Source of the DNA: Anaerolineae bacterium
Lineage (GTDB): Bacteria; Chloroflexota; Anaerolineae; UBA3071
Reading direction: 5' to 3'
Assembly (NCBI GenBank): GCA_029907105.1
Contig: JARYMM010000004.1
Span: 65,364-129,363 of the forward strand
Length of the DNA stretch: 64,000 nt
A program made the translations under genes and the position numbers. Shown piece after piece: positions 11,233 to 52,743 of this stretch. Position 1 is the stretch's first letter. Every line of letters begins with the position of its first letter. The notes under the pieces are model-generated. The model did no database searches and was not told where the DNA came from. It saw nothing but the letters and a program-made list of their open reading frames with translations.

Positions 11233-11311
11233 GTTCAGGGGAAAAAGGGAAAAGAGGGAAAGAAGGGGACTGAGGGAACTGGGGGTTGAAGTAAGAAGGC
11301 GAGGGATGGAA

Positions 11312-18977: not shown

Positions 18978-19050
18978 CCTCACCCTCCCCCCAACCCCCT
19001 CCCTCTCCCAACTTTGGGAGAGGGAGGGGGTTGAGGGGGAGGGAGAGGGG
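18978..19050. repeat. GC-rich imperfect palindrome in the TR-to-RT spacer
   Basis: ccctcaccctccccccaaccccctccctctccca-actt-tgggagagggagggggttgagggggagggagagggg. Confidence 0.55.
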
Positions 19051-19319: not shown

Positions 19320-19452
19320 GGAGAGCCATGAGACCGCCACCACCCGAAACCCGTTGTTGTCGTTGCGGTTGTTCGGGTTGTTCCTGTTGCGATAGGCGCA
19401 GCGGACGTTTCTGCGATTGTTGTTCCACGTGCCGCCACGTAGCACCCGCGGC
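19320..19452 (-). repeat. DGR template repeat (TR)
   Basis: About 133 bp that match the VR except at template adenines; coding-strand AAC-rich (translates as [37 protein letters not shown]). Confidence 0.85.
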
Positions 19453-19559
19453 AGTTTCCGGTCGGCCCTACGTTCCCCCGTTGGCACGTACCAGGGGAAC
19501 GCACGACCCATGATACCGCAGCTAGCGCCAAAGCGCAAATTTCGCTGCTCGCGCGCGCT

Positions 19560-19580
19560 GAGGGGGGCACAGCCCCCCTC
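19560..19580. repeat. GC hairpin downstream of the VR (gagggggg-cacag-cccccctc)
   Basis: An 8-bp G/C stem about 65 nt 3' of the VR end on the coding strand. Confidence 0.4.
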
Positions 19581-19646
19581 AGACTCCCCCCACAGAGATC
19601 AGGGACTCAGAGTTCCAGAGACCAGAGACTCCAGAGGCCAGAGGGG

Positions 19647-19781
19647 GGAGAGTCAGGAGACCGCCACCACCCGAAACCCGAAGTTGTCGTTGCGGTAGCC
19701 CGGGAAGTACCCGTCGCGAAAGGCGCAGCGGACGTCCCTGCGATCGTCGTACCACGCGCCGCCACGAAGCACGCGCGGCGC
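19647..19781 (-). repeat. DGR variable repeat (VR) at the 3' end of the target gene
   Basis: Aligns to the TR with 18 substitutions, all at TR adenines; the 3'-terminal about 28 nt (IMH-like) is near-identical to the TR. Confidence 0.85.
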
Positions 19782-22529: not shown

Positions 22530-22712
22530 GATACCCTCTCCTGCTCGCGGCGGACGGCCACGTCCGCCGCCTCCCTGCTTCCCCTGGTGCATAGCATAGC
22601 CAGAACCCTGAAGCCGTCGGGCTGAAAGAGCAAAGCCCTTCGGGCTAGCTGCTTTCAGCCCCGCAGGGGCTTGGCCCTCTCAGCGCGGGGCTTGCAGCCC
22701 CGCCTTCTTCAG

Positions 22713-23950: not shown

Positions 23951-24051
23951 ACGGTTGTAGTATTAAATGCAGAGCTACCGGGCGCCGAGACCGCAGTCGT
24001 CATAGCCTAACGGGCCACCCTGAAGCATGAAAAAGTCCCACCTGTGCGGTT

Positions 24052-24081
24052 AGTAGGACAACTGCTCGCAGTTGTCCTACT
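24052..24081. repeat. Palindrome AGTAGGACAACTGC-tc-GCAGTTGTCCTACT (family copy 1)
   Basis: Perfect 14-bp inverted repeat, preceded by the shared flank ccacctgtgcggtt. Confidence 0.55.
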
Positions 24082-24210
24082 ACCTCGAAAATAGATGCCT
24101 GGACCATTATTCGTCCCTGGTGGTGTCCGCAGGGACGTGACAACTACTCTGCGCAGTTGACGCCTCGGCCTGAAATGAGTATACTTGTGCTCAGGCGAAG
24201 GAGAGATGTC

Positions 24211-28862: not shown

Positions 28863-31800
28863 ATGGCCCGCACCCAAACCCTGATCCGCTCCCTGCTCAC
28901 GGCCCTGGGCGTGGCCCTGGCCATTGCCGGTCAGTGGGCCCTGCTCCAGGCCCGGCAGCCGGGGAGCCGCCTGACCTGGCCCCTGGGCGCCGCCCTCCTG
29001 GCCCTGGGTGCGCTGCTCTTCGCCTTCACCGCGACGGATATTCCCCTGGGTGAGCAGAGGAAGCGGAAGGGACAAAAACCTTCCGCTTTTCCGCTGACGA
29101 TCCGCCTTCCGCACCTGCCCTCCTCGTGGGCCCTGCCGGCCGACCTCCTGGCCGTGCTCCTCATCACGGCCATCGCCGCCGCCGCCCGCTTCTACCGCAT
29201 CGCCGAAACCCCGGCCGGCCTGTGGCTGGACGAGACCGACATCGCCAAACAGGCCCTGGAAATCGTCAACGGCCTGCGCCCCAGGCCGTGGCAGGTGGCC
29301 CGCCTGGAGGTGCCCTGGCTGTACCACTACTACGTCGCCCTCTTCTACAAACTGCTCGGCCCCGGCTATCTCACGGTCAAGCTCCCCCATCTTATCAGCA
29401 GCACCCTCACCGCGCCGGTGCTCTACCTGCTGGCCCGCCAGTTCCTCGACCGGCCCATCGCCTTTCTCAGCGCTCTGCTCTGGGCCACCATGCGCTGGTC
29501 GGTCAACATGAGCCGCTGGGGGCACGCCAACACCCTCACCCTCTTCTGGATCTGCACCGTGTTCTTCCTGCTGTGGCGAGCCCAGGCCACCGGCAAGTGG
29601 CGCTGGTGGGTCCTCGGCGGCCTGGCCCTGGGGCTGAGCCAGTACGCCTACCAGAGCACGCGCGCCCTCGTCGCCATCGTCGCCGTCTTCCTGATCTACC
29701 GCGCCCTGTGCCCACGCCGCTACTTCCGCCGCCTCTGGCCGCAGATCCTGCTCTTCTGGCTGCTCTTCGCCCTCGTCTATGCCCCTCTGGCCTGGACCTA
29801 CATCCAGAATCCCGAGCTGTTCCTGGAGCGCAGCCGGGCCATCAGCATCTTCAACCCCCTCTTCACCCGCGACCCGTGGGCGACGCTCAAAGAAAACATC
29901 GGCAAATATGCCGGCGTCTTCCACTTCCGTGGCGATCACAATGGCCGGCACAACATCCCCGGCCAACCCATGCTCGACCCCATCACCGGCGTGCTGGCCG
30001 TCCTGGGCCTGGCCCTGACCCTGCGCCGCCCGCAGCGCCCGCACCACGCGCTGCTGCTGCTCTGGGTCCTGCCCTTCCTTGCCGTGGGCATCCTCACCAC
30101 CGAAGCGCCCAACACCTTCCGCATCTACGCCCTCACCCCGGCCATCGCCCTCCTGGCCGGCCTGGCCCTGCAAGCAATCAGAGATTGGATACTGGGTATC
30201 GGGCATTGGTCATTGGAGGATGTCGCCTCGATATCCAATATCCGATACCTGCCACTGGCCATCCTGCTCACCGTCGCTATTGCCGCTGCCGCCTACCTGA
30301 ATCTCGCCCTGTACTTCAACGTCCAGGCCACCCACCCGGCCGTCGTCGGCATGTTCAACGTCGGCCCCACCCGCGTCGGCCAGTACATCGCCACCCTGCC
30401 CGACGACACCACCATTTACCTGGACCGCGAGTTCTGGGCCTTCTCGCCCATCGAGGTCATCAACCCCGGCCGCCCGCTCACCCGCCTCAAGGCCCCCGAT
30501 CATGTCCCGCCACCGCCCGCCCAGAACGCTCCCGTCGCCTACATCCTGGGCACCTATGGCCAGTTGCTCGTGCCTTGCCTCCAGAGCCTCTATCCCGACG
30601 CCCTGGTGGAACCCGGCCTGGGCCCTAACGATCAACCCATCTTCACCGGCGTGCGGCTGAGCGGCGAGACAGTTGCCCGCAAGGGGCTGCGCGGCACCTG
30701 GTGGGCCGGCCTGGAACCTGGCGGCCAGCCCGCCGCGAGCGGGGTGACGCCGCTCGATCCCCTGCCCATCACCCCGCCGGCCACCGCTGACCTGCGCGGC
30801 GGCCTCTACCTGCCGAAGCCCGGAACCTATGGCCTGCGCATGGAAGGAGCCGACCGCCTGCGCCTGACCCTTGCCGGCCGCACGGCGCTGGAGGCCCCCG
30901 CCCAGCCCGTCTCCCTCACCCTGCCCGGCGGGCTCGTTTCCGCCCATCTCGAGCTCACCGTCGCCGGTCCGGCGGCCCCGCGCCTCCTCTGGCGCCCGCC
31001 CGGCGCCGGCGATTGGGAACCCATCCCCGGGCAGAACTGGTATCCCCTGGACATCCCCGAAGGCGGCCTGCTGGCGCTCTCCTTCGAAGGCGGCGGCCTG
31101 CGCACGCCGCCCGTGCGCATCACGTCCGATGCCTGGCTCTACGCCGACAACGCCGGCGACCTGGCCACGGCAGCCATGCGCTGGCTCGGCCGCCTGCATA
31201 TCCCCGAGGCCGGCCTCTACCAGTTCGGCCTGTCGTCCGATGATGCCTCGCGGCTGTGGATAGATGACCAGCTCGTCGTGGACAACTGGGGACTGCACGG
31301 GGCTGGCTGGATGGACCGCCCGGCCGAGCTCACCGCCGGCTGGCACGGGGTGCGCATAGACTACATTGACAACGGCGGCAGCCACTGGTTCGAGGTCCGC
31401 TGGACGCCGCCGGGGCAGTCGCCCGGCCGCCTGCCGGCGGAACTCCTGAGCTGGAGCGAGGACGACCTGGCCCAGGCCCTGACGCCGCCGGAGAACCCGC
31501 CCCCTGTGCTGCGCGTCCTCAATGCTGCAGGTGAACCCGTGGGCACCGTGCCCATCGCCGCCGCCCGCCTGGGCGACCCCAAGTTCAATCAACCCATCGG
31601 CGACGCCAACTTCCAGAGCTGGCCCATGAAGCTGCAGAGCACGATGTACGACCACGGCATCGGCGTCTACGGGCCGGGGGAAATGGACTTCGACCTGGGA
31701 GGGGGCTACCTGCGCTTCCAGGGCCTGGTGGGGGTGGATACCGATACCTACGGCGACGCCCACACCCAGGTGCAGATCATCGGCGACGGCCGCGTCCTCT

Positions 31801-31964
31801 GGGACAGCGGCCAGATCCACCCCTGGGACCCTCCCACCCCCTTCGACGTGGATGTGAGCGGCGTGCAGCGCCTGACCCTGAAACAGATCGAGGAGGGGCA
31901 CTTCGAGGGTCGCGGCGACGCCGTGGATTGGGTGAACCCCGTCCTACGCAAACCTGAAACCTGA
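28863..31964 (+). CDS. GT-C family glycosyltransferase (PMT/ArnT-like) with C-terminal PA14 and NPCBM-like domains
   Basis: Polytopic N-terminal half with a WLDETD DE motif; a PA14-like segment (GLYQFGLSSDDASRLWIDDQLVVDNWG); an NPCBM-like C-terminus (DHGIGVYGPGEMDFDLGGGY...VQIIGDGRVLWDSGQI). Confidence 0.65.
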   Translation: MARTQTLIRSLLTALGVALAIAGQWALLQARQPGSRLTWPLGAALLALGALLFAFTATDIPLGEQRKRKGQKPSAFPLTIRLPHLPSSWALPADLLAVLLITAIAAAARFYRIAETPAGLWLDETDIAKQALEIVNGLRPRPWQVARLEVPWLYHYYVALFYKLLGPGYLTVKLPHLISSTLTAPVLYLLARQFLDRPIAFLSALLWATMRWSVNMSRWGHANTLTLFWICTVFFLLWRAQATGKWRWWVLGGLALGLSQYAYQSTRALVAIVAVFLIYRALCPRRYFRRLWPQILLFWLLFALVYAPLAWTYIQNPELFLERSRAISIFNPLFTRDPWATLKENIGKYAGVFHFRGDHNGRHNIPGQPMLDPITGVLAVLGLALTLRRPQRPHHALLLLWVLPFLAVGILTTEAPNTFRIYALTPAIALLAGLALQAIRDWILGIGHWSLEDVASISNIRYLPLAILLTVAIAAAAYLNLALYFNVQATHPAVVGMFNVGPTRVGQYIATLPDDTTIYLDREFWAFSPIEVINPGRPLTRLKAPDHVPPPPAQNAPVAYILGTYGQLLVPCLQSLYPDALVEPGLGPNDQPIFTGVRLSGETVARKGLRGTWWAGLEPGGQPAASGVTPLDPLPITPPATADLRGGLYLPKPGTYGLRMEGADRLRLTLAGRTALEAPAQPVSLTLPGGLVSAHLELTVAGPAAPRLLWRPPGAGDWEPIPGQNWYPLDIPEGGLLALSFEGGGLRTPPVRITSDAWLYADNAGDLATAAMRWLGRLHIPEAGLYQFGLSSDDASRLWIDDQLVVDNWGLHGAGWMDRPAELTAGWHGVRIDYIDNGGSHWFEVRWTPPGQSPGRLPAELLSWSEDDLAQALTPPENPPPVLRVLNAAGEPVGTVPIAAARLGDPKFNQPIGDANFQSWPMKLQSTMYDHGIGVYGPGEMDFDLGGGYLRFQGLVGVDTDTYGDAHTQVQIIGDGRVLWDSGQIHPWDPPTPFDVDVSGVQRLTLKQIEEGHFEGRGDAVDWVNPVLRKPET

Positions 31965-31986
31965 AACCTGGAACCCGAAACCCGTC

Positions 31987-33084: not shown

Positions 33085-33114
33085 AGTAGGACAACTGCGA
33101 GCAGTTGTCCTACT
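33085..33114. repeat. Palindrome AGTAGGACAACTGC-ga-GCAGTTGTCCTACT (family copy 2)
   Basis: Same palindrome and ccacctgtgcggtt flank as at 24038-24081. Confidence 0.55.
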
Positions 33115-33271: not shown

Positions 33272-34891
33272 ATGCGAACGATTGAACTCGACGGCGAGTC
33301 GCTGACCATCGAGGACGTGGTGATGGTAGCACGGGCAGCGCCGGGGACGGTGGCCTTGCGCCTGACCGACGAGGCACAAGGAAAAGTGCAACGGGCGCGG
33401 GAGGCCGTGGAGCATTTCGTCGCCCGCGGCGACGTGATCTACGGCATCACCACCGGCTTCGGCGCCTTCCAGGACAAGGTCATCCCCCCCGATCAGGTGC
33501 GCCAATTGCAGCGCAACATCCTTATGAGCCACGCCGTGGGCGTGGGCGAGCCTTTCTCTACGGAGGTGGTGCGGGCGATGATGCTGGTGCGGGCCAACAC
33601 GCTGGCCAAGGGGCATTCCGGCATCCGCCTGACCACGTTGCAGACGTTATTGGCCATGCTGGAGCGCGGCGTGCATCCGGTCGTGCCCACGCAGGGCTCC
33701 CTGGGGGCCAGCGGCGACCTGGCTCCCCTGGCCCACATGGCCCTGGTGCTCATCGGCGAGGGAGAGGCTGACTACGAAGGGGAACGGTTGCCGGGACGGG
33801 AGGCACTGCGGCGCGCCGGGCTGGAGCCGGTCACCCTGGAGGCCAAGGAGGGATTGGCGCTGACCAACGGCACGGCGCTGATGGCCGGCCTGGGCGCGCT
33901 GCTGGTGGTGGAGGCAGAGCGGACAGCACGGGTGGCGGACATCGCCGGCTGTCTCAGCCTGGAGGCGCTCTACGGCACCACGGTGGCCTTCGACCCCCGC
34001 ATCCACGCCGCCCGCCCCCATCCGCGCCAGGTGGAATGCGCCGAACGGCTGCGCCGCCTGCTGGCAGGATCCACTTTTGTGCGGGATGGCCAACTCGTCA
34101 CGCATCACGCATCACGCATCACGCCTGGCGGCAGCAGGCCACGAAGTGACGAGGCTCCCCGCGATCCCCAGGACGCCTACACCCTCCGCTGCATTCCTCA
34201 GGTGCACGGGGCCTGTCACGATGCCATCAAGTACGCCCGCTGGGTGGTGGACATCGAACTGAACAGCGCCACCGATAACCCCCTCATCTTCTTCGACGAC
34301 GAGGGAAGGCCAGAGTGTCTTTCCGGCGGCAACTTCCACGGCGAGCCGCTGGCCATCGCCTTCGACTACCTGAGCCTGGCGCTGACCGAGCTGGGCAACA
34401 TGGCCGAACGCCGCCTGACCCGTCTGACCGACGGCAGCAGCAACCGCCACGTGCTGCCCGACTTTCTGACCCGGCACGGCGGCCTCAACTCCGGCTTCAT
34501 GCTCACGCAGTACACGGCCGCCGCGCTGGCCTCGGAGAACAAAGCCCTGGTGCATCCGGCCAGCGCCGACACCATCCCCACCTCGGCCAACATGGAGGAT
34601 CACGTCTCCAACGGGCCGGCGGCGGCCCGTCAGGCACGGCGCATCCTGCGCAACCTGAACTACATCCTGGCCATCGAGCTGTTGGCCGCCGCCCAGGGCA
34701 TTGACTTCCGCCGCCAGGTGCTGGGCGCGCAGGCGCGATTGGGTCAAGGCACGGCCGCCGCCTACCAACTCGTGCGCCAGCGTGTGCCATTTCTGGAACG
34801 GGACGCCATCATGTACCCCTACATCGAAGCGGTGCACGACCTGGTCGTCAGCGGCGAACTGGTGGCCGCGGTGGAAGCAGCGCTGGCATAG
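33272..34891 (+). CDS. hutH: Histidine ammonia-lyase
   Basis: GSLGASGDLAPLAH MIO-forming motif; GGAGG RBS. Confidence 0.85.
   Translation: MRTIELDGESLTIEDVVMVARAAPGTVALRLTDEAQGKVQRAREAVEHFVARGDVIYGITTGFGAFQDKVIPPDQVRQLQRNILMSHAVGVGEPFSTEVVRAMMLVRANTLAKGHSGIRLTTLQTLLAMLERGVHPVVPTQGSLGASGDLAPLAHMALVLIGEGEADYEGERLPGREALRRAGLEPVTLEAKEGLALTNGTALMAGLGALLVVEAERTARVADIAGCLSLEALYGTTVAFDPRIHAARPHPRQVECAERLRRLLAGSTFVRDGQLVTHHASRITPGGSRPRSDEAPRDPQDAYTLRCIPQVHGACHDAIKYARWVVDIELNSATDNPLIFFDDEGRPECLSGGNFHGEPLAIAFDYLSLALTELGNMAERRLTRLTDGSSNRHVLPDFLTRHGGLNSGFMLTQYTAAALASENKALVHPASADTIPTSANMEDHVSNGPAAARQARRILRNLNYILAIELLAAAQGIDFRRQVLGAQARLGQGTAAAYQLVRQRVPFLERDAIMYPYIEAVHDLVVSGELVAAVEAALA
34098..34124. repeat. 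Heptanucleotide tandem repeat (TCACGCA, about 3.9 units) inside the hutH coding sequence
   Basis: tcacgca tcacgca tcacgca tcacgcc, encoding THHASRITP. Confidence 0.6.
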
Positions 34892-36601: not shown

Positions 36602-38524
36602 GTGCGCGTTATCGGCACGGCAGGACACGTAGATCACGGCAAATCAAGCCTGGTGCTGGCCCTCACGGGCATTGACCCCGACCGCCTGCCCGAGGAAAAA
36701 GCCCGCGAGATGACCATTGACCTGGGCTTTGCCTGGCTGACGCTGCCCGGCGGCGAGGCCGTGGGCATCGTGGACGTGCCGGGCCATATTGACTTCATCA
36801 AGAACATGCTGGCCGGCGTCGGCTCCATTGACGCGGCCCTCTTCGTCGTCGCCGCCGACGAAGGGGTCATGCCCCAGACGCGGGAGCACCTGGCCATCCT
36901 CGACCTCATGCAGGTGCCCGCCGGCGTGGTGGCCCTCACCAAGACAGACCTGATCCGGGAGCCCGAGTGGCTGGAACTGGTGGCCGAAGAGGTGAGCGAC
37001 CTGCTGGCCTCCACGCCGCTGGCCGGGGCGCCCATCGTGCCGGTGTCCGCCCGCACGGGAGAGGGCCTGCCGCAGTTGCTGCAGGCGCTGGAAGACGTGC
37101 TGCAGAACGCTCCCCCGCGCCGCGACCTGGGGCGGCCGCGCCTGCCCATAGACCGCGTCTTCACCGTGGCCGGCTTCGGCACCGTGGTCACCGGCACCCT
37201 CAGCGACGGCTGCCTGGAGTTGGGCCAGGAAGTAGAGATCGTGCCCGGCGACCTGCGGGCGCGCATCCGCGGCCTGCAGACGCACAAGCAGCAGATCGAG
37301 CGCGCCGTGCCCGGCAGCCGCGTGGCCATCAACCTCAGCGGCGTGCGCACCGAGCAACTCCAACGCGGCCAGGTGGTCACCCTGCCCGGCCTGCTGCGCC
37401 CTACACAGCTTGTGGACCTGCGCCTGCGCCTGCTGGCCGACTCTCCCGCTCCGTTCAAACACAACCAGGAGGTGGACTTCTTCTCCGGCGCGGCGGAGGT
37501 GGTGGCCCGCGCCCGCCTGCTCGATGCCGAGGCCATCCCGCCCGGCGGCCAGGGCTGGGTGCAACTCCGCCTGCGCCAGCCGGTGGCCGTGGCTGCCGGC
37601 GACCGCTTCATCCTGCGGCAACCTTCGCCCAGCCGCACGCTGGGCGGCGGCCAGGTGGTCAACCCTCACCCCAGACGACGGCATCGCCGCTTCCGCCCTG
37701 AGGTCATCGCCCACCTGGAAACCCTGGCCCGCGGCCAGCCCACGGACATCCTGCTGCAAAGGTTACAGGAGCGCGAACCGGCCGGCGCACGGGAGATCGT
37801 CTCCGCCAGCGGCCTGGAGGAAGACGTTGCCCTGGCTGCCCTGGACGAACTGCTGTCCACAGGGCAGGCCTTCTTCCTGAGCCCGAATGAGGCAGCGGTG
37901 TCGGCGGCGCAGGCTGTGGCCGGCAACCGCTACCTGGTCTCGGCGGCCGGGTGGCGACGGTTTACGGAGCAACTGCAAGGCGTGCTGGCCGATTATCACC
38001 GCCAATACCCCCTGCGCCTGGGCATGCCGCGCGAGGAACTGAAGAGCCGTTTGCAGCCCCGTCGTCCCTGGCCTGGCCGCCTGTTCAACGAGGCGATGAG
38101 CCGGGCCGCAGCCGAGGGGCTCATCGCCGAAACGGAAGGCGCGGTGCGCATGGCTGAGCACGCGGTGCGCTTCACGCCAGAGCAACAGCGAGAGGCGGAT
38201 GCACTGCTCGCCCGCTTCCGTGCCCAGCCCTACGCGCCCCCCACCGTGGCCGAGGCCACGGCCAGCGTCGGCCCCGAGGTGTTGCAGGCCCTGATCGAAT
38301 CGAACACCCTCACTCGCATCAGCGAAGAGGTGCTCTTCCTGACCGAGACCTACGAGAAGATGGTGGCGCGGATCATGGCCCATCTGCAAAGCGAGGGGAG
38401 CATCACCGTGGCCCAGGTGCGGGACATGTTCGGCACCAGCCGCAAGTACGCGCTGCCGCTCATGGAGCACCTGGACGAACGGCGGCTGACACGGCGGGTC
38501 GGCGACCAACGAGTGTTGCGTTGA
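36602..38524 (+). CDS. selB: Selenocysteine-specific elongation factor
   Basis: GHVDHGKSSL G1 motif, EF-Tu-like domains and a C-terminal winged-helix extension (640 aa); GTG start. Confidence 0.8.
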   Translation: MRVIGTAGHVDHGKSSLVLALTGIDPDRLPEEKAREMTIDLGFAWLTLPGGEAVGIVDVPGHIDFIKNMLAGVGSIDAALFVVAADEGVMPQTREHLAILDLMQVPAGVVALTKTDLIREPEWLELVAEEVSDLLASTPLAGAPIVPVSARTGEGLPQLLQALEDVLQNAPPRRDLGRPRLPIDRVFTVAGFGTVVTGTLSDGCLELGQEVEIVPGDLRARIRGLQTHKQQIERAVPGSRVAINLSGVRTEQLQRGQVVTLPGLLRPTQLVDLRLRLLADSPAPFKHNQEVDFFSGAAEVVARARLLDAEAIPPGGQGWVQLRLRQPVAVAAGDRFILRQPSPSRTLGGGQVVNPHPRRRHRRFRPEVIAHLETLARGQPTDILLQRLQEREPAGAREIVSASGLEEDVALAALDELLSTGQAFFLSPNEAAVSAAQAVAGNRYLVSAAGWRRFTEQLQGVLADYHRQYPLRLGMPREELKSRLQPRRPWPGRLFNEAMSRAAAEGLIAETEGAVRMAEHAVRFTPEQQREADALLARFRAQPYAPPTVAEATASVGPEVLQALIESNTLTRISEEVLFLTETYEKMVARIMAHLQSEGSITVAQVRDMFGTSRKYALPLMEHLDERRLTRRVGDQRVLR

Positions 38525-39339
38525 GCGAACTCTCGGCGGCGGCGATTGAGAGCGCCCTGACCACTGCCTGGCTGGGGCGGCCGGTGCATCACTTCATCCA
38601 ACTCGGCTCGACCAACGACCTGGCCCGCGAGCTGGCCCGCCGCGGCGCAGCCGAGGGCACGCTGGTCATCGCTGAGGAGCAAACGGCCGGCAAAGGCCGG
38701 CTGGGGCGAAGCTGGTGGGCGCCGCCGGGCTCCTGCCTGCTGCTTTCGCTGATCTTCCGCCCGCCGCTGGCCCCGGCGCAGGCGCAGCGGCTGACCATGA
38801 TCGCCGGGCTGGCCTGCGCGGAGGCGGTGGAGGCACAGACGGGCCTGCGCCCCGGCCTCAAGTGGCCCAATGACCTGGTGCTGGCGGAGCGCAAGCTGGC
38901 CGGCATCCTGACTGAACTGGAGACAGCCGGGGAACGGCTGGACTTCGCCGTGGTGGGCCTGGGCCTGAACGTCAACGTGGATTTTCGGCAACAGGCCACG
39001 GATGCGGAACTGCGAGATAGTGCCATCGGCCTCCTGCAGGTACTGGGGCGGCCGGTGGACCGCCTGGCCTTGCTCAACGAGCTGCTGGTGCGGCTGGAGC
39101 AGCGTTACGAACGGCTGCGCGCCGGGCAGTCGCCGCATGCCGAGTGGGCGGCGTGCCTGGTCACGCTGGGCCAGGCCGTGCGAGTTGTAACCCCCTCCCC
39201 AGCCCTCCCCCCTACAGGGGGAGGCGTACTGGAGGGTCAGGCGGTGGGCGTGGACGCCGACGGCGCGTTGCTGCTGCGCCTGGCCGATGGGCGCACGGAG
39301 CGGGTGCTGGCCGGGGATGTAACGTTGCACCGGGGTTGA
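38521..39339 (+). CDS. birA: Biotin--protein ligase, group I (no DNA-binding domain)
   Basis: GKGRLGRSWWAPPGSCLLLS motif; the start codon is uncertain (TTG). Confidence 0.7.
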   Translation: MSELSAAAIESALTTAWLGRPVHHFIQLGSTNDLARELARRGAAEGTLVIAEEQTAGKGRLGRSWWAPPGSCLLLSLIFRPPLAPAQAQRLTMIAGLACAEAVEAQTGLRPGLKWPNDLVLAERKLAGILTELETAGERLDFAVVGLGLNVNVDFRQQATDAELRDSAIGLLQVLGRPVDRLALLNELLVRLEQRYERLRAGQSPHAEWAACLVTLGQAVRVVTPSPALPPTGGGVLEGQAVGVDADGALLLRLADGRTERVLAGDVTLHRG

Positions 39340-41498: not shown

Positions 41499-43085
41499 AT
41501 GCAGCTCGGCCAACTGATCGCCGCCCTGCCCGACGTGGGCCAGGCCCTCGTCACCGACGAGGCACTGGCCATGGACATCACCGCCATCACCGCCGACTCG
41601 CGCCGGGCACAGCCCGGCGCTCTGTTCGTCGCCTACGCCGGCGTCAGCGTTGACGGACACGATTTCATAGACCAGGCGGTGGCGGCAGGGGCAGCGGCTG
41701 TTGTGGGAGAGAGGGAATGGAAGGAAATAAGGGGAATGAGGGGGGGCACCTCTTTTCCCTCGTTTCCTTCCTTCCCTTACGTTCGCGTCGGCGACGGCCG
41801 CCAGGCGCTGGCCTATCTTTGCGCCGCCTGGCATGGCTTCCCGGCTCGCCGTCTGAAGGTGATCGGCGTCACCGGCACCGATGGCAAGACGACGGTGACC
41901 TTTCTCATCCACGCTGTGCTCACCGCCGCCGGTCACCGCACGGGCATGATCAGCACCGTCAGCGCGCGCATCGGCGAGCGGAGCCTGGATACGGGCCTGC
42001 ACACCACCACCCCTGATGCGCCGGAGGTGCAGGCTTACCTGGCGCAGATGGTCGCCGCCGCCAGCGAGTACGCCGTGCTGGAAGCGACATCGCACGGGCT
42101 GGCGCAGCAGCGGGTGGCCGCCTGTGACTTCGATGTCGCCGTGGTCACCAACATCACCCACGAGCATCTGGACTTCCACGGCTCGCCCGAGGCCTATCTC
42201 GCGGCCAAGGCCATGCTCTTCGAGAGCCTGAGCCGCAGCCAGCGCAAGCCGGGCGTGCCCAAAGTCGCCATCCTCAATGCCGACGACAGCTCCTTCCAGC
42301 GGCTGCGCCGCATCCCCGCCGATGTCCAGATCACCTATGGCTTAAGCGAAAGCGCCGATGTCCGGGCCACTGATATCCGCTATAGCCCCTCCGCTACTCG
42401 CTTCACCGTCCAGGCGCACTCGGCAGTGAGCAAGATACGCGCCTCCAGCTTCCAGCTTCAGACATCGCTTATAGGTGAATATAACGTCTACAACTGTCTG
42501 GCCGCGGCGGCCGTGGGGCTCTCGCAGGGCCTCACAGCGGAGGCCATCCAAAACGGCATCGCCAGCGTCAAAGGTGTCGTCGGGCGCATGGAGCGTATTG
42601 ACGAAGGGCAGGATTTCCTGGCCATCGTGGACTTCGCCCACACGCCGCGGGCGCTGGAGGTGGCCCTGGAGACTGTGCGCCGCCTGGCCGAAGGGCGGGT
42701 GATCGTCGTCTTTGGCTGCGCGGGGTTGCGGGACGTGCAGAAGCGCCCCTGGATGGGGCGCATCGCCGGGCGGCTGGCCGACCGGGTGGTCATCACGGCC
42801 GAGGACCCTCGCACGGAGCCGCTGGAGGAGATCATGGCCCAGATTGCCGCCGGCTGCCAGGAGGCGGGAAGGCGGGAAAGCCAGGACTACTGGCGTATCG
42901 GCAACCGGGCGGAGGCCATCCGCTTTGCTGTCCACATGGCCCGGCCCGGCGATGTGCTCCTCGTCACCGGCAAAGGGCACGAGCAGTCCATGTGTCTGGG
43001 CAACACCGAGTATCCCTGGAGCGACCACGCCGCCCTGGGCGCCGCGCTGCGCGGGGAAAGGCTTCCTGAGTCTCTGGCCTGGTAG
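41499..43085 (+). CDS. murE: UDP-N-acetylmuramoyl-L-alanyl-D-glutamate--2,6-diaminopimelate ligase
   Basis: VIGVTGTDGKTT P-loop and Mur ligase body. Confidence 0.9.
   Translation: MQLGQLIAALPDVGQALVTDEALAMDITAITADSRRAQPGALFVAYAGVSVDGHDFIDQAVAAGAAAVVGEREWKEIRGMRGGTSFPSFPSFPYVRVGDGRQALAYLCAAWHGFPARRLKVIGVTGTDGKTTVTFLIHAVLTAAGHRTGMISTVSARIGERSLDTGLHTTTPDAPEVQAYLAQMVAAASEYAVLEATSHGLAQQRVAACDFDVAVVTNITHEHLDFHGSPEAYLAAKAMLFESLSRSQRKPGVPKVAILNADDSSFQRLRRIPADVQITYGLSESADVRATDIRYSPSATRFTVQAHSAVSKIRASSFQLQTSLIGEYNVYNCLAAAAVGLSQGLTAEAIQNGIASVKGVVGRMERIDEGQDFLAIVDFAHTPRALEVALETVRRLAEGRVIVVFGCAGLRDVQKRPWMGRIAGRLADRVVITAEDPRTEPLEEIMAQIAAGCQEAGRRESQDYWRIGNRAEAIRFAVHMARPGDVLLVTGKGHEQSMCLGNTEYPWSDHAALGAALRGERLPESLAW
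41709..41787. repeat. Palindromic purine/pyrimidine-rich insertion inside murE, in frame
   Basis: gggaatggaaggaaataagggg...cctcttttccctcgtttccttccttccc encodes EREWKEIRGMRGGTSFPSFPSFP; a related string occurs at 49190-49245. Confidence 0.55.
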
Positions 43086-43146: not shown

Positions 43147-43233
43147 GCCGAAGTGGCGGAATTGGCAGACGCGCACGGTTCAGGGCCGTGTGGGCTTACG
43201 CCCATGTGGGTTCAACTCCCACCTTCGGCACCA
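43147..43233 (+). tRNA. tRNA-Leu (anticodon CAG), CCA encoded
   Basis: Cloverleaf with a long variable arm; anticodon loop ttCAGgg; close to the E. coli tRNA-Leu(CAG) pattern. Confidence 0.85.
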
Positions 43234-44069: not shown

Positions 44070-44141
<72 letters not shown>

Positions 44142-44146
44142 TCAAT

Positions 44147-44219
44147 GGCGGCGTAGCTCAGTTGGTAGAGCACGGAGCTCATAATTCCGGTGTCCCCAGT
44201 TCGAGCCTGGGCGCCGCCA
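44147..44219 (+). tRNA. Elongator tRNA-Met (anticodon CAT)
   Basis: GGCGGCGTAGCTCAGTTGGTAGAGCAC... elongator Met pattern; CCA not encoded. Confidence 0.75.
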
Positions 44220-47752: not shown

Positions 47753-49704
47753 AAGCCGACGAGCAAGGTATACGGCGCGGGCCCCAGCGCTGCTGGCAAT
47801 TCCAGCCGATGGACGTCCAACAGCGTCTCGCCCGGCTGCCAGAGCGACGTGGGGTAGTACACACCGCCGGGCAGGTGATCGGACTGCGCCACCTTCTCCC
47901 CCTGCGCATCCAGCAGATGCACGAAGCTGGTGTAATCCCCGTCCAGGGGGCGCAGCGGCTGCCAGTGCAGCGCCACCTCCAGCACGCTGCCCCCCTCCAG
48001 AGGCGAGCGCAGATCGTAGCCCAGCAACTGTATGGCCCCGCCCACGGCCAGCCCCGATGATCTGCCAGGCGGCCCGCTGGCGGCAGGCCCCACCACCTCT
48101 ACCAGATTCCGCACCGGCCGCAGGGCGAACTTCACCTCCAGCCCCGGCATGGGCTTGATGAGATACACCGGCCGGCCGGTCGAAAGCGCCCGCTCTACCA
48201 CCTGTCCCACGTTAGCCCACCCCGGCTCGCCCACGATGCGCGGGAACAGGCCCGTGATGTCGGGCCGCACGCCCTCCACCTGCTGCAGGTACCAGAGGGG
48301 CATCATCTCATCGCGGTCGTTGCTGATCAAGATAGCCTCCGCCGGCGGTGGCGCAGCCAGGATGGCCTGCCAGCGGTCACGCCCGGCGCTGTCCCCACTG
48401 CGGTCAACGAGGGAAAGGTTGTGCAGCAGCAGGGCGATGGGCAGGGTCAGCGATAGCAAGACAATCGCTGCAGATAGCACACTCGGAATTGTATATTTGA
48501 GATGGCGACCTGCGACCTGCGACCTGCCACCTGCCCCCACCGCTTCAGCTATCGCACCAATGCCGACGCCCATCCAGCAGGCCCAGATGAGCGCGGGAGC
48601 GATGAAGAACACATGGATGTCGCCGATGCCATAGAAGAGATTGAAGAGCAACAGGGCCAGGAAGCTGAGGCCGGTGAGCGCTAATAGCTGTCCGCGTCGT
48701 CCGGCGACCAGGCGCGCCAGCCCTACGAGGCCCAGGACGATGCCCGCCCAGCCGAACTGGCGCCACAGGAGCTCCCCGGCCAGCGCGAGCCGCGCCGCTG
48801 CGGCCGCGGGAGGGAGCAACTCGCCGACGAAGACGCGGCCCAGGACGAAGTCCAGGAAGCCACGCAGTCTGTGATCGTAAAGCTGTAAGGAATGCCCGGC
48901 GCTGAGCGGCACGGTGAGGTATGGCGTGTGCGGGGCACGCAGGGGGATGTACAGGTAGAGCAGCAGGGGCAAGAGACAGGAGGCAAGAAGCAAGAGGCAA
49001 GAAGCAGGAGGCAAGAGGCAAGAAGCAAGGGAGGAGGGGCGAGAGGCAAGGGATGAAGGGCGAGAAGCGAGGCGCCGCCGGGTCAGCCAGAGGAAAAGCA
49101 GGACTGCGGGAGCCAGTAACAACATGGTGCGATGGTGCGTCAGCCCCAAACCGTATATCAAGGCCACCACGGCCAGACGGCCCAATGCCCCCTCAGCCCC
49201 CTCCTTTCCCTCGTTTCCTCTGTCTCCTTCCTTCCACCACAGCAACAGCCAGAGCCCCCCGGCCACAAATGCCGCGTGCAGCGTGTAGATCTCGGCAATC
49301 ACCGCCTGCGACCAGAAAGTCTCGGAGCAGGCGAAAGCCAGGGCGGCGACAGCCGCGGCCAGGAGGCGAGGCAATGTGGGCAGTCTGGGCGTCGCCTCTC
49401 GCAGCAGCCGCCTGGCCAGCAGGTAGGTCAGCGCCACGGCCACGCCGCCCCACAGCGCCGAGAAGAGGTTCATTCGCCAGGCCACGTCGCCCCAGGGGAT
49501 GATGTGCGTCCACAGCCAGCCCAACATGAGGTAGAGGGGGTAGCCGGTGGGGTGGGCGATGCCGCCCAGGTAGGCAGCGAACTGCAGTTCTCCGCTGTCG
49601 CCGCCCAGCAGGCCAGGGGCCAGCGTGCGCAGGTAGAGGCCGAAGGCGGCCAGGCCCAGCAGAGCGGCAAGGGTTCGGTTCAAACGAGATATGGGATTGA
49701 CCAT
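47695..49704 (-). CDS. DUF2723/TMEM260-like GT-C family membrane glycosyltransferase
   Basis: GGDSGE and PTGYPLY motifs near the N-terminus; polytopic; contains repeat-encoded low-complexity inserts. Confidence 0.6.
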   Translation of the reverse strand: MVNPISRLNRTLAALLGLAAFGLYLRTLAPGLLGGDSGELQFAAYLGGIAHPTGYPLYLMLGWLWTHIIPWGDVAWRMNLFSALWGGVAVALTYLLARRLLREATPRLPTLPRLLAAAVAALAFACSETFWSQAVIAEIYTLHAAFVAGGLWLLLWWKEGDRGNEGKEGAEGALGRLAVVALIYGLGLTHHRTMLLLAPAVLLFLWLTRRRLASRPSSLASRPSSLASCLLPPASCLLLLASCLLPLLLYLYIPLRAPHTPYLTVPLSAGHSLQLYDHRLRGFLDFVLGRVFVGELLPPAAAAARLALAGELLWRQFGWAGIVLGLVGLARLVAGRRGQLLALTGLSFLALLLFNLFYGIGDIHVFFIAPALIWACWMGVGIGAIAEAVGAGGRSQVAGRHLKYTIPSVLSAAIVLLSLTLPIALLLHNLSLVDRSGDSAGRDRWQAILAAPPPAEAILISNDRDEMMPLWYLQQVEGVRPDITGLFPRIVGEPGWANVGQVVERALSTGRPVYLIKPMPGLEVKFALRPVRNLVEVVGPAASGPPGRSSGLAVGGAIQLLGYDLRSPLEGGSVLEVALHWQPLRPLDGDYTSFVHLLDAQGEKVAQSDHLPGGVYYPTSLWQPGETLLDVHRLELPAALGPAPYTLLVGFYRQPSMERLGEPLRLAGP
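48505..48532. repeat. Heptanucleotide tandem repeat (GCGACCT, 4 units) in a coding region
   Basis: gcgacct gcgacct gcgacct gccacct. Confidence 0.55.
48965..49070. repeat. Purine-rich tandem repeat (GGCAAGARG-like units) encoding a LASRPSSLASRPSSLASCLL low-complexity segment
   Basis: ggcaagaagcaagag gcaagaagcaggag gcaagaggcaagaag ... Confidence 0.55.
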
Positions 49705-49827: not shown

Positions 49828-52743
49828 CTACCTCTCCACCCTCACCCAATCCACCGCTGCGGCCAGCGGACGGCGGTCCGGGTTGCGGCCCAGCCGCAGC
49901 CAGGCATTGGGGGCAGCTACCAGCTCCAGCGCTGTGCCCGGCGCGGCGCCCTTGACGCCGATAAGGGCATGGGCCTGTCCCACAGCGCCGCGCAGGTCAC
50001 CCTGCGCGCCCAGGCTGTGCAGGGCGGCGACGGCCTCGGCGGTGACATGCTGACCGGCATCGTCCTTCGTGGCCACGACGACGATGCGCCCCTCGGGGAT
50101 CTGGGCCACGAACTCCGCCAGCCGCTGTGCCTCGTACTCGTTGGCCCAGGTGTCGAAGCCCCGCTTGTCCAACAGGCGGCCCGTGCGGGCGTCGAGCACA
50201 GCCACGTTGTAGCCCCGCCGTCCCGCCGAACCGTCGGTCTTGGCCCCGGCCTCGTCGTAGAGGGAGATGTAGGCGTGATCGGCGGCGGCCTCGATCTCGA
50301 TGTCCACCGGCGTCGCCACCCCCGTGGCGCCGATGGCCGTCTGGCCCGGAAGCACGTCCCGCGGGCGTTCCACCCGACCAAAGCGCAGCTTCAGCCGGTT
50401 GAGGCCCGATCGCACAGCCGCTGCCGGCAGCGGCACGTCCAGCACCTGCCAGCCCTCGGACAGAAGCTGCGGCTGGTCCAGCGGCTGGCCGTTCAGGAAT
50501 ACCTGCAGCGATTGCGGTGTGGCCCCAGGGTAACTGAAGGGAGCGATGCGCAGGCCCAGGCGGTAGTCGGCAAGCTCCCGCAGGGGGAAGAAAATCTCCG
50601 CCTCTGCGGCCGCCCAGTTGGCCGTCTCGCCGAAGATAACCTCGTCGTCGTGCCAGCCGGCGCCGCGATTCGGCCAGGCCGCCTGCGTGCCCAGGTCTAT
50701 CTCCAGCGGAAAGGTGAGCATCGGCTGTAGCACGCGGTAGGCGCGCACGCCGTCCTGGTCGTAGAAGGGCTCGCTCTCCAGCGGCAGCACCTGGCGGGCG
50801 TACTGCCAGGTGCGGGCGTAGGTGTCCTGATAGGGCCAGCGGCCGGGGATGGGCGGCAGCACGACCAGATAGCGCACGTCGTAAAGCTGCATCAACCCGG
50901 CGGCCTGGGCGCGGGCCGCCGCATCGGTCTCCGCATCGGGCTCACGATACATCTCCACATCGGCCAGCGCCCGGAAGAGCGGGACGCGGCGGAAATACTC
51001 CATTTTGAACGAGGGGGCGCGGGCGATGTTGCCGCCGATGATGGGCTTGCCGTGCACGGTCTGATATATCTGGAGTTGCGTGCGCTCGGAGCCGAGGGGG
51101 CCGAAAGAAGTACGCCAGCCCAGCGGCAGGTGCATCACGGCGAATTCCCCCGGCTCGGCGGCGATCTGCTCGTACACCGGGGGCACGCGGGCGTCGGTCA
51201 GCGGCGTTGGAACGGCTGCGTGCTCGAACAGGATGACAAGGGAAAAGAGGGACACGAAGAGTGCCCTCCGCCTCCCTGTTCTCCCCGTCGCCTCAGCCCC
51301 CGGTGCCTTAGCCCTAAGCAATTGCAGCAGGAAGTATGTGCCGAAGCCCGCAAGTACTGCTAACCCCAACATCAAGAGCACGCTGTTGCGATTGGGGGCG
51401 CGGTTGGCCTGCACGATGGGAATATAGTGCAGCAGGGCATAGGGCAAGGGGAAGGTGGCCTCCAGCCCGTCCAGGTCGAAACGATAGCGGCCGTTGATCT
51501 GGAGAAGCGGCCCCAGGCAAAAGAGCCCGAAGAGAAGCGCTGTCCAGCCCCAGACCCGCACCTGCTGCCGGTAGCGGAGCAGGCCCAGCAAGGCCAGCGC
51601 CAGCGTGGCGTAGCCCAGAAAGACCGTGTTGACGTCGGCAAAACGCGCCGTGCCCTCTTCCACAGCCCGCAGCTCGCGCACCCAATCGCCGCCCCACAGC
51701 GGATGCAACGCCGTCGGCGTGACCATCCCCACCAGGTCAGCCGACAGCTTGACCGCCTCGCCCCACCCTTCCAGCGCATATTCCCCTGTGGCGAACTGGC
51801 GCACGATGGGAACCAGCACAGGCGCCCAAAGCACGGCCACAGTCACGCCAATGACCATCAGCCCCCAAACGGGCTTCAGGTTCCATCGCCGAACGCCGAA
51901 CGCCAAACGCCGAACGTTGAACGCCAGCACAAGCAGGGTGAAGATGCCCAGGAAGACGCCGAAGATCATCTCTGCCAGGACGGCCAGGGTGAAAAAGAGT
52001 CCGGCCAGCAATGCGTTGCGCACCAGGCACTGGCGCTTGTCAGCGCGGACGGTCTTGAGCAAATAGAGGGCATAGAAGGGCAGCCACTGGGTGGTCACCA
52101 TGTCGTAATGGCCCAGCGCAGCGTAGACGGCGCGGTTGGCGGCGAAGGCATAAACCAAACCGGCCGTCATAGCTGCCAGACTGCTGATCAAGGGGTTAAG
52201 GGATAAGGGATAGGGGGCAGGCGCTGCCCTACACGCCGTTTCCCCTGGCCCATAACCCCTAACCCTTAGCCCATAACCCCTATCCCCTGCCACAAGAAGA
52301 TAGCGGACAAGCAGGAAAGCCCCATAGCCGCTGAGCACGGTGGACAGGATGAGGGTGGCGTTGCTCGCCGCCGGCAGGCTCATCACCATCTGCAGGGGCA
52401 AGGCAATAAGGGCATTGAAGAAGTTATAGGTATGCAGGATCAGGTCAATGCCCAGGGGGAAGAAGAGCAGGTCCGTGTGCAAGGGGCTGGTGTGCAGGTC
52501 AATCACCGCCCGTTTGAACCACCAGATGTTCCAGACGAAGGTGTATTCGTCGAAGGCCCAGGTGGCACTGCCGGGCACATGGGTGGCGAAATGGGCGATC
52601 AGAGGGTAGCTGAGAAGCAGGGCCAGGACCAGAAAGAGGGCCAGGACAGCGAGGTGAAGCACTTTGCCGTCGGCCAGAGTTAACGCCTGCTTCCCCCGCC
52701 CTGTCCCAGCGAAGGGGGGACAATCATCTTTGCGCTCGGGCAT
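49828..52743 (-). CDS. Large GT-C-like polytopic membrane protein with a C-terminal soluble domain (putative glycosyltransferase)
   Basis: AFDEY DE-type motif in the first loop; more than 10 TM helices; a 500-aa extracytoplasmic C-terminal region. Confidence 0.5.
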   Translation of the reverse strand: MPERKDDCPPFAGTGRGKQALTLADGKVLHLAVLALFLVLALLLSYPLIAHFATHVPGSATWAFDEYTFVWNIWWFKRAVIDLHTSPLHTDLLFFPLGIDLILHTYNFFNALIALPLQMVMSLPAASNATLILSTVLSGYGAFLLVRYLLVAGDRGYGLRVRGYGPGETACRAAPAPYPLSLNPLISSLAAMTAGLVYAFAANRAVYAALGHYDMVTTQWLPFYALYLLKTVRADKRQCLVRNALLAGLFFTLAVLAEMIFGVFLGIFTLLVLAFNVRRLAFGVRRWNLKPVWGLMVIGVTVAVLWAPVLVPIVRQFATGEYALEGWGEAVKLSADLVGMVTPTALHPLWGGDWVRELRAVEEGTARFADVNTVFLGYATLALALLGLLRYRQQVRVWGWTALLFGLFCLGPLLQINGRYRFDLDGLEATFPLPYALLHYIPIVQANRAPNRNSVLLMLGLAVLAGFGTYFLLQLLRAKAPGAEATGRTGRRRALFVSLFSLVILFEHAAVPTPLTDARVPPVYEQIAAEPGEFAVMHLPLGWRTSFGPLGSERTQLQIYQTVHGKPIIGGNIARAPSFKMEYFRRVPLFRALADVEMYREPDAETDAAARAQAAGLMQLYDVRYLVVLPPIPGRWPYQDTYARTWQYARQVLPLESEPFYDQDGVRAYRVLQPMLTFPLEIDLGTQAAWPNRGAGWHDDEVIFGETANWAAAEAEIFFPLRELADYRLGLRIAPFSYPGATPQSLQVFLNGQPLDQPQLLSEGWQVLDVPLPAAAVRSGLNRLKLRFGRVERPRDVLPGQTAIGATGVATPVDIEIEAAADHAYISLYDEAGAKTDGSAGRRGYNVAVLDARTGRLLDKRGFDTWANEYEAQRLAEFVAQIPEGRIVVVATKDDAGQHVTAEAVAALHSLGAQGDLRGAVGQAHALIGVKGAAPGTALELVAAPNAWLRLGRNPDRRPLAAAVDWVRVER
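52192..52288. repeat. Palindromic insertion (gggttaagggataagggataggggg ... cccataacccctaaccc ... cccataacccctatcccc), in frame in the GT-C gene
   Basis: Inverted repeat arms with tandem 18-bp subunits; encodes GYGLRVRGYGPGETACRAAPAPYPLSLNP. Confidence 0.5.

Follow-up and report, generated by a model that had tools for sequence, protein, structure and literature searches.

Rickettsia palindromic elements (RPEs), as summarized in PMC10969869 from Ogata et al. 2000, are dispersed families of ~100-150 bp, in each of which a consensus can be recognised and the encoded peptide is conserved. The hairpin that we describe here, within murE of an uncultured Anaerolineae bacterium (Chloroflexota), resembles RPEs as that summary presents them in being palindromic, in frame in a housekeeping gene, translated, located at a site that the protein fold tolerates, and selfish or neutral in appearance. 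It differs from RPEs so presented in that no dispersed consensus copy was found, in its size of 68 nt, in its 9-nt tandem units and their copy-number variation, in seeming half ancestral, and in its host, which is not Rickettsia. Bacterial MITEs and REPs (Correia, ERIC, Nezha; GTAG/CGTC-tagged REPs, PMC3733652) are likewise small and hairpin-forming, but the murE hairpin lacks a terminal tag or flanking direct repeats, is single-copy in the window, and is intragenic. The coding palindromes of Nematomorpha mitochondria (PMC6649704) are also inverted repeats in protein genes with both arms translated. Those repeats, however, are up to 284 bp long, perfect, and mitochondrial, with arms that code conserved regions, whereas the murE stem is short, imperfect, bacterial, built of tandem units, and placed in a variable loop. 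Inverted repeats created by template switching (PMC8604942, PMC5941160; bioRxiv 10.1101/2023.04.19.537475) are attributed in their abstracts to fold-back copying by the polymerase from adjacent sequence, with homogenisation of the arms, and we propose a similar origin for murE; slippage of 9-nt tandem units, affecting both arms of a hairpin that is itself coding, would be an added layer absent from those abstracts. Finally, in-frame coding VNTRs and minisatellite-like loci share with the murE arms a unit length that is a multiple of 3 nt, copy numbers that differ among close relatives, and a reading frame that is kept. Unlike them, murE has two facing complementary arrays that form a hairpin, and its product is an essential cytoplasmic enzyme rather than that of a surface or contingency gene. 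The murE hairpin is thus a variant within known kinds of sequence: RPEs, coding palindromes, and coding repeat arrays.

The host gene, murE (UDP-MurNAc-L-Ala-D-Glu:meso-DAP ligase; 41499..43085, plus strand), lies in a 64-kb stretch of DNA, all of which was analysed and which we call the window. Its 528-aa ORF contains all three Mur-ligase domains (Mur_ligase, Mur_ligase_M and Mur_ligase_C by Pfam), and the protein is a 100% match to one from an NCBI Anaerolineae MAG (P0001). Positions 41711..41778 of the plus strand fold into a 68-nt imperfect hairpin comprising a 31-nt purine-rich arm, a 7-nt loop and a 30-nt pyrimidine-rich arm (dG -49 to -51 kcal/mol, z -4.9 to -6.4). An inverted-repeat search placed the arms at 41714-41741 and 41749-41776 (28 nt, 79% complementary, 7-nt loop), and RNAfold on 41700-41795 returned -50.9 kcal/mol (z = -4.93), with 0 of 200 shuffles equally stable; the in-frame palindrome that an earlier note on this DNA had claimed in murE is indeed there. 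It ranks third among the hairpin outliers of the window. The strongest of these, at 18961-19060 (dG -95), was considered as another in-frame insert and rejected, as it belongs to a diversity-generating retroelement (17775-22592), where it separates the template repeat from the reverse-transcriptase domain and sits within a spurious ORF extension.

Both arms are tandem arrays of 9-nt (3-codon) units according to TRF. The purine-rich arm (41711..41741, plus strand) reads GAATGGAAG / GAAATAAGG / GGAATGAGG and encodes EWK-EIR-GMR (period 9, 3.3 copies, 41713-41743); the loop GGGGCAC (41742..41748, plus strand) falls inside the codons of G82-G83-T84; and the pyrimidine-rich arm (41749..41778, plus strand) follows the consensus CCTCGTTTC, encoding SFP-SFP-SFP (period 9, 2.1 copies, 41749-41767), with codon-phased units TCTTTTCCC / TCGTTTCCT / TCCTTCCCT. 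The complete hairpin-encoded peptide is EREWKEIRGMRGGTSFPSFPSFP. Because the unit spans three codons in both arms, slippage would leave the reading frame unbroken, and the frame is intact in all variants observed among at least 12 orthologues. In the AlphaFold model of MurE (mean pLDDT 84) a helix at residues 74-79 is followed by coil at 80-93 and a strand at 94-97, with pLDDT <50 at residues 82-87. The extra residues are therefore predicted to form a low-confidence coil between helix and strand, in keeping with the suggestion that the segment occupies a tolerated loop. The hairpin is flanked by GTTGTGGGA on its 5' side and ACGTTCGCG on its 3' side; no flanking direct repeat, target-site duplication or defined ends are visible in this sequence, and both ends lack a GTAG or CGTC tag. 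GTAG-type palindromes do occur in the window at 15499, 24051 and 33085, with sequences unlike that of the murE hairpin. No Rfam family reached the gathering threshold for the hairpin, for which only generic microRNA-precursor look-alikes were returned, far below threshold. Across the 64-kb window the same thresholds yielded three tRNAs and nothing else.

We ruled out an assembly artefact because independent assemblies from NCBI, ENA, JGI and Logan have hairpins at this site, with differing sequences. We also rejected the idea that such segments are tolerated because purine and pyrimidine arms are free of stop codons: 4 of 6 frames are open in the hairpin, against a genomic mean of 3.84 in 79-nt windows.

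How much of the hairpin is actually additional sequence bears directly on its origin. Between the anchors AAAVVG and GRQALA, the window MurE has 41 residues where 28 are usual in a protein alignment of 85 loci. Measured against that usual loop, the net insertion would be ~13 codons (residues ~78-90, RGMRGGTSFPSFP; 41730..41768, plus strand), with an uncertainty of about 2 codons in its boundaries. The two best-matching solved homologues are both shorter at the hairpin site, and against the best of them, the only aligned homologue with a single clean gap there, the gain is ~8 residues; the ~20 added residues proposed earlier were too many. Because only ~39 of the 68 nt in the hairpin span are extra, insertion of a whole palindrome is unlikely, and with it the proposal of a single inserted 79-bp miniature element. 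From the alignment, the extra codons appear to be mainly the pyrimidine arm and the apex. The outer purine arm encodes a short helix, and hairpin-less relatives use similar purine-rich codons at the homologous helix (GAG AGA AAA ATG AGG GAG CTG AGA and similar AGR/GAR/AAR codons). What these relatives present is not a clean empty site, as they retain the purine-rich helix codons of the outer arm, and we infer that this arm is probably ancestral helix-coding sequence. Because relatives vary in the four residues that follow GER, the homology rests on position, length and codon style rather than on strong identity.

From the genome collection the best 80 murE loci were retained, with a best MurE match of 75% and the source species not among them. 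The hairpin segment is absent from ~70 other Anaerolineae MurE loci, which, with the shorter solved homologues, supports the claim that it is lineage-specific. Where hairpins do occur at this site, their lengths differ from that in the window by -18 nt (L001), +9 nt (L003) and +18 nt (L093), all multiples of 9. Steps that equal the 9-nt repeat unit are a signature of slippage, not of transposition. The two arms are not always coupled in unit number: L093 has 3 purine units facing 5 pyrimidine units (5.3 copies by TRF). In other relatives the hairpin is nested, decayed or deleted. Among members of the clade to which the window belongs, murE remains intact in L088, which has a deletion at the hairpin site, in L089, which retains the extra length with the fold lost (z +0.9), and in L090, which has no fold (z -0.2). 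Lineage by lineage, the pyrimidine arm complements its own purine arm, and the arms share no common consensus; in clade B, for example, CTGAGGG units stand opposite CCCTCAG units. On a neighbour-joining tree of MurE, hairpins appear at three separate places with hairpin-less neighbours.

Taken together, these observations give roughly an even chance that the hairpin is a coding palindromic minisatellite that formed in place and did not arrive whole. Under such an origin, the starting point would have been a stretch of purine-rich codons (GAG AGG GAA ...) for a short surface helix of MurE, with a permissive loop between this helix and the strand PYVRV. A replication template switch (fold-back copying) would have written the reverse complement of the purine stretch just 3' of it, producing the pyrimidine arm and its SFP repeats. 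Replication slippage would then gain or lose whole 9-nt units, with the arms re-pairing in a new register. Occasional arm-to-arm copying or compensating changes could preserve the stem in some lineages, with decay or deletion elsewhere. The ~13 extra residues would form a disordered coil at the surface, tolerated by the enzyme, and the hairpin itself would have no required function. Template switching between inverted repeats is, according to the accounts in PMC8604942 and PMC5941160, an established route to creating and homogenising repeat arms, and the ancestral helix, by its position, its length and its purine-rich codons, fits such an event, as does the complementarity of each lineage's arm to its own partner. 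The observations that count against formation in place include two sequence matches of the pyrimidine arm, one of 95% over 20 nt in another gene of the window and one an exact 23-mer in another metagenome, as well as the atypical codon usage of the hairpin, the mobile palindromes of related genomes and the unusual conservation of the rare purine codons in the outer arm, all described below. On balance, a tolerated, self-made passenger seems a better description of the hairpin than either a jumping element or a regulator.

Both of those matches belong to the evidence for a mobile source, which we consider a real though minority possibility: an RPE- or MITE-like palindrome, or a mobile family of purine tracts, would have entered the murE loop, either ancestrally or repeatedly at a preferred site, and survived there as an in-frame surface loop. 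One argument for it comes from a sister species (L004-L006), which has a truly dispersed palindrome family, GTCAGCGGAraaGCGGAAAG..., that is MITE/REP-like in having clean filled and empty sites. An 87-nt copy lies in frame inside murE of L006 only and is absent from its two close relatives; it has GGCAGC at both flanks and sits elsewhere in the gene than the window hairpin. An 88-nt copy at the murE stop codon is present in L005 and L006 and missing from L004, and additional copies lie directly 3' of TGA stop codons. Coding sequence of the window also contains a relative of this dispersed GTCAGCGGAAAAGCGGAA family, in the form of an in-frame purine-to-pyrimidine hairpin (29040..29100, plus strand; dG -40.6 for the surrounding 111 nt). 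It encodes EQRKRKGQKPSAFPLT, close to the N-terminal end of a membrane protein with PMT_2, PA14 and NPCBM domains (Pfam). The earlier suspicion that comparable in-frame palindromes exist elsewhere was well founded, since they occur in further genes of the window and of relatives. Two lie in the gene for an ILEI-domain protein, both on the minus strand: one (GRTGRRRALFVSLFSL, 51236..51296; dG -48.7 for 117 nt) is unalignable with the L001 orthologue, and the other (52191..52290) is made of 7-nt CCCCTAA units and their complement, with unrelated sequence at that place in L001.

The closest counterpart of the murE arm in the window is an in-frame purine tract without a partner arm, WKEGDRGNEGKEGAEG, in a TMEM260-like/DUF2723 gene (49190..49245, minus strand), the L001 orthologue of which differs in sequence and length. 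No other tract matches the pyrimidine arm of murE as well; the earlier description of a near-identical arm correctly located the tract and overstated the likeness, which is 95% over 20 nt (49200-49219) and 71% over 51 nt. Related purine-rich runs do exist, as had been noted, at 11236-11300 and 51238-51262, with 12-15-nt words in common with the murE hairpin. The first of these (11236..11300, plus strand; repeat family D9) is an intergenic tract of 9-nt units, GGGAAAAGA..., that begins directly 3' of a stop codon and is similar to other purine tracts of the window and to the purine arm of the L091 murE hairpin (z 8.0 against mononucleotide shuffles). Several pairs of tracts, murE arms included, are more alike than composition predicts, with z of 4-8 against mononucleotide shuffles, a null that is lenient for sequences made of runs. 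The match between the L091 purine arm and 11262-11290 is suggestive, being significant against mononucleotide shuffles only and failing BLAST at E <= 0.05 in 1.4 Mb. The exact 23-nt match to the pyrimidine arm lies on an unrelated contig, in the intergenic space between rmlD and a glycosyltransferase gene, and was the only hit apart from one murE orthologue in a scan of JGI metagenomes. The codon usage of the hairpin is foreign to murE (GC3 of 0.63 against 0.84, and 3 of the 5 AGG codons in the gene), which would be compatible with import of an element as well. The recurrence of hairpins at one site in non-sister lineages could reflect target preference, and purine/pyrimidine palindromes are ~5-fold denser in loci of this clade than in loci of other Anaerolineae (1.25 Mb) by a crude count on non-random loci.

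By contrast, BLAST with the window hairpin and all orthologous hairpins against the 64-kb window and 1.4 Mb of related loci recovered nothing beyond the 20-nt match, and the scan of JGI metagenomes found no second near-complete copy. The missing target-site duplication and defined ends, a net gain of 39 nt that falls short of the 68-nt palindrome, an outer purine arm that appears ancestral, variation in 9-nt units, and arm sequences that are each lineage's own with no shared consensus all speak against a mobile source.

It is also conceivable, if improbable, that a mutational process active specifically in this clade keeps writing hairpin-forming arrays, made of short purine units and their complements, into loop-coding parts of ordinary genes, essential genes included. 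Either replication that is prone to template switching or an unrecognised enzyme that targets purine-rich repeats of 7-9 nt could be the agent, and in a stronger version of the process the stems may be in use, for example as co-translational pause sites. If such a process is real, chosen protein loops would become fast-evolving and variable in length, and the same murE site would have been hit repeatedly in separate lineages.

We assign a small probability to selection on the nucleic-acid structure itself, whether as an mRNA stem at which ribosomes pause after one folding unit of domain 1 and before the next, as a determinant of mRNA stability or processing, or as a DNA cruciform or protein-binding site. 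A stable stem does persist at the same codons, with lineage-specific sequences, in lineages down to 59-63% protein identity. One clean compensatory pair (n=1; A41722/T41768 to G/C in L003) and two further covarying outer pairs are seen among the hairpins of relatives. Moreover, conservation of the rare purine codons in the outer arm exceeds the gene average: among identical residues in four relatives, 36 of 37 codons (97%) are identical, compared with 78% in the rest of the gene, which is not predicted by pure neutrality. In the pyrimidine arm, however, only 57% of codons are identical against the same 78%, and this faster drift at synonymous third positions breaks stem pairs. Because the hairpin interiors are lineage-specific and unalignable, the consensus fold from MAFFT and RNAalifold is limited to 12 outer pairs. 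The stem has been lost or has decayed in L088, L089 and L090 of the same clade (z from -1.5 to +0.9) with murE intact, it is missing from most Anaerolineae, the unit numbers of its arms vary independently (L093), and it matches no Rfam family. Similar hairpins also lie at arbitrary sites in unrelated genes, where they cannot be aligned from one genome to another at 87% identity.

That the peptide was selected, for example as a charged and then proline-rich interaction loop, with the DNA complementarity incidental, is very improbable: an E/K/R/G then S/F/P pattern recurs at the site in several lineages and the reading frame is kept in every case, but folding z of -5 to -7 is unexpected from amino-acid choice alone, the loop is predicted to be disordered, highly variable in length and sequence, and dispensable in close relatives, and the rare codons serve purine/pyrimidine purity rather than protein need.

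If the hairpin did form in place, it would be a clear bacterial case of replication errors growing a new loop in an essential enzyme, by fold-back copying and then 3-codon slippage, with the frame never broken. Inverted repeats are commonly held to be incompatible with coding sequence, and yet they can last there for a long time. In practical terms, proteins that contain such segments seem more divergent than they are, and the segments can cause errors in alignment and in metagenomic genome assembly; they could also be used as strain markers. The finding would extend the idea of selfish DNA within genes from Rickettsia to free-living Chloroflexota, by way of simple-repeat dynamics rather than transposition.

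The murE gene (41499-43085, plus strand) is intact, encoding 528 aa with all three Mur-ligase Pfam domains, and an identical protein is found in a MAG that NCBI labels Anaerolineae bacterium; three tRNA genes (43147-43230, 44070-44141 and 44147-44219) lie just 3' of it. Within murE, and in frame, is a 68-nt hairpin with an imperfect stem (41711-41778) that encodes EREWKEIRGMRGGTSFPSFPSFP. A repeat search pairs its arms, 41714-41741 and 41749-41776, with 79% complementarity across a 7-nt loop. The predicted fold (dG -50.9 kcal/mol, z -4.9) was matched by 0 shuffles and ranks third among hairpin outliers in a sliding-window scan of the full 64 kb, bearing out the palindromic repeat that the earlier note had seen in frame in this gene. 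Each arm is a tandem array of 9-nt units, detected by TRF with period 9 on both the purine side (3.3 copies, 41713-41743) and the pyrimidine side (2.1 copies, 41749-41767), and read in codons as (EWK)(EIR)(GMR), an apex (GGT), then (SFP)(SFP)(SFP). Purine units each contain one T, which gives rise to the hydrophobic residue and falls at evenly spaced unpaired positions of the stem. Codon usage in the hairpin is foreign to murE: GC3 is 0.63 versus 0.84 for the gene, 3 of the 5 AGG codons in murE are found here, and GGA, ATA, TCT, TTT and CCT are used as well.

How much of this segment is extra was judged from an N-terminal alignment of MurE from 85 loci, with the loop measured between the anchors AAAVVG and GRQALA. 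Most Anaerolineae MurE have a loop of 28 residues (e.g. AERKMRELRVPLVVV), versus 41 in the window, so that extra, lineage-specific length is confirmed; the net gain, however, is 13 residues (39 nt) and the hairpin 68 nt, not the 79 bp and roughly 20 residues first proposed. Relatives without the hairpin carry similarly purine-rich codons at the homologous position (e.g. GAG AGA AAA ATG AGG GAG CTG AGA in L020; GAA AGA AAG ATT AGA GGG in L038). In the AlphaFold model of MurE (mean pLDDT 84), residues 74-79 (EWKEIR) are predicted as a short helix, 80-93 as coil and 94-97 as a strand, with pLDDT <50 at 82-87. The two solved homologues that match best have fewer residues in the SFP-repeat stretch, the nearest lacking about 8 there. 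Because the gain is smaller than the hairpin span, and given these codons, the predicted helix and the shorter homologues, the simplest reading is that the outer purine arm is ancestral helix-coding sequence, and that the gained part is the apex plus the pyrimidine arm, a reverse complement of the ancestral purine stretch.

DNA for the relatives came from exact-sequence protein look-ups, one genome-collection scan, whose returns did not include the source species, and one metagenome scan. Within the window's subclade, loop length differs from that of the window in 9-nt steps (L001 -18 nt, L003 +9, L093 +18). The arms do not strictly co-vary in length, since L093 has five pyrimidine units and only three purine units. 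In the sister-species loci L004-L006, and in L008, the hairpin measures 120-123 nt and has a further palindrome nested inside it (dG -53 to -62). Three further members of the window's clade have intact murE: L088 with a short loop, L089 with the extra length kept and the fold lost (z +0.9), and L090 with no fold (z -0.2); loops of usual length have folding z-scores of about 0. The site also bears a hairpin in L007 and L091, which share 63% identity with the window, and in L037, which shares 59%. Arm sequences are distinct at each of these loci, and each pyrimidine arm is complementary to the purine arm of the same locus; clade B has CCCTCAG units opposite CTGAGGG units. On a neighbour-joining MurE tree, which is approximate and omits the gap-rich portion of the variable loop, three hairpin-bearing groups are split apart by hairpin-less lineages, a scattered distribution that needs multiple gains or multiple losses.

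Best supported is an origin of the hairpin in place, to which we give an even chance. Template switching would have produced an inverted duplication of a purine-rich coding stretch, slippage in 3-codon units would afterwards have changed its length, and a disordered, permissive loop would tolerate the product, which may at times be repaired and at times decay or be deleted. Inverted-repeat template switching is an established mechanism (PMC8604942, PMC5941160). The hairpin also resembles in-frame coding tandem repeats and the palindromes known from mitochondrial coding sequence of Nematomorpha (PMC6649704).

Insertion of a mobile element of the Rickettsia palindromic element or MITE kind, as first suggested, seems to us somewhat unlikely. 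As in the Rickettsia elements (PMC10969869), palindromic DNA is translated within a housekeeping gene; unlike them, the murE hairpin lacks clean empty sites and shows no dispersed consensus in the sequence searched. No direct repeats flank it, and the window plus 1.4 Mb of related loci hold no second copy: the pyrimidine arm thought to recur almost identically at 49195-49245 reduces to a 20-nt, 95% match at 49200-49219, the best found. A degenerate 23-mer fitting both arms hits the JGI metagenomes at just two places, murE of L093 and a tract of contig L094. On the other side, window purine tracts (11236-11300, 49190-49245 and 51238-51262) and the arms of other lineages resemble one another more than mononucleotide shuffles do (z 4-8). 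Moreover, real mobility is seen in the sister species, though of a different palindrome, a dispersed family of ~67-88 bp with arms built from GCGGAAAG units (L006 4523-4599 and 5244-5314; L005 10896-10972 and 8036-8102; L004 5732, 8670 and 9891). Filled and empty sites are clean: L006 has an 87-nt copy in frame within murE that L005 and L004 lack, and in both L005 and L006, but not in L004, an 88-nt copy takes the place of the murE C-terminus and stop codon. Further copies form a subfamily immediately 3' of TGA stop codons, with ATGA at the bounds, and one family member lies inside window coding sequence (29040-29100).

Selection for a nucleic-acid structure we regard as improbable. There is one clean compensatory change, A41722/T41768 (in gapless arm pairing) to G/C in L003, and RNAalifold retains just 12 outer pairs, with covariation at 2. 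Among four close relatives, in pairwise comparisons that are not independent, identical residues use identical codons in 36/37 cases for the outer purine arm and 20/35 for the pyrimidine arm, versus 78% elsewhere in murE. Such drift of the pyrimidine arm speaks against pairing being under strong selection; neutrality alone would not predict how well the rare purine codons of the outer arm are conserved. That selection acts on the encoded peptide is very improbable.

Other palindromes occur in the window. A perfect one, (A)GTAGGACAACTGC-n4-GCAGTTGTCCTAC(T), has three apparently intergenic copies (15499-15527, 24051-24082 and 33085-33114) and ends in GTAG, the tag described for REP elements (PMC3733652). 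A large intergenic hairpin at 6301-6400 (dG -59 kcal/mol, z -5.4) is built around a perfect 14-bp core, GGACTGTCAAGTCC...GGACTTGACAGTCC, matches no Rfam family, and has TTTTGGATTTTGAAC repeats nearby (4246-4282 and 6411-6468). The strongest hairpin of the window, 18961-19060 (dG -95 kcal/mol; a pyrimidine then a purine arm of 12-nt units), lies within a diversity-generating retroelement on the minus strand (17775-22592), between the template repeat and the reverse-transcriptase domain. That domain lies in ORF 17775-19538 (minus strand), whose first ~300 codons are probably non-coding. The 133-nt variable (19647-19779) and template (19320-19452) repeats are 84% identical, with 19/21 mismatches at template adenines, and the target gene (19653-22592, minus strand) encodes a NACHT/STAND NTPase with a C-terminal FGE-sulfatase (C-type-lectin fold) domain. 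Palindromes similar to the 18961-19060 hairpin, CCCCTCCCCTCTCC...GGAGAGGGGAGGGG, are found upstream of murE in two Thermoflexus-like loci, L016 and L019, and occur in L062.

The window abounds in 7-nt and 9-nt tandem repeats. Those of 7-nt period are unusually numerous, within genes and between them (11425-11456, 12339-12364, 20068-20137, 31950-31982, 34098-34124, 48505-48534, 48962-49072, 51887-51926 and 52249-52288), with units AACCTGG, GGTTTCA, AATCCGC, TCACGCA, GCGACCT, GCAAGAA, CGCCGAA and CCCCTAA; at the 48962-49072 array, L001 and the window differ by 42 nt. These 7-nt repeats are reminiscent of the STRR heptamer repeats of cyanobacteria. On the unrelated metagenome contig L094, units resembling GGGAAANGA make up a purine tract (5796-5845) that runs from the rmlD stop codon towards a glycosyltransferase gene. 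This tract matches the murE pyrimidine arm, taken as its reverse complement, exactly over 23 nt, and CTTGCAT heptamer repeats come after it. An ILEI-domain gene holds two in-frame purine-to-pyrimidine hairpins (51236-51296 and 52191-52290), and a TMEM260-like gene has a purine tract without a partner arm; when the window is compared with L001 (genes ~87% identical), these segments are unalignable or unequal in length. In birA (biotin-protein ligase, 38521-39339), a nested coding hairpin occupies the loop between VRVxTPSP and GGxVLEG: its outer stem, CCCCCTCCCC...GGGGGAGG, is present in the window, L001 and L003-L006 alike, and a long inner purine/pyrimidine palindrome in L001 (5850-5990), L003 and L004 and not in the window, L005 or L006. 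Coding purine/pyrimidine hairpins are a general phenomenon in these genomes.
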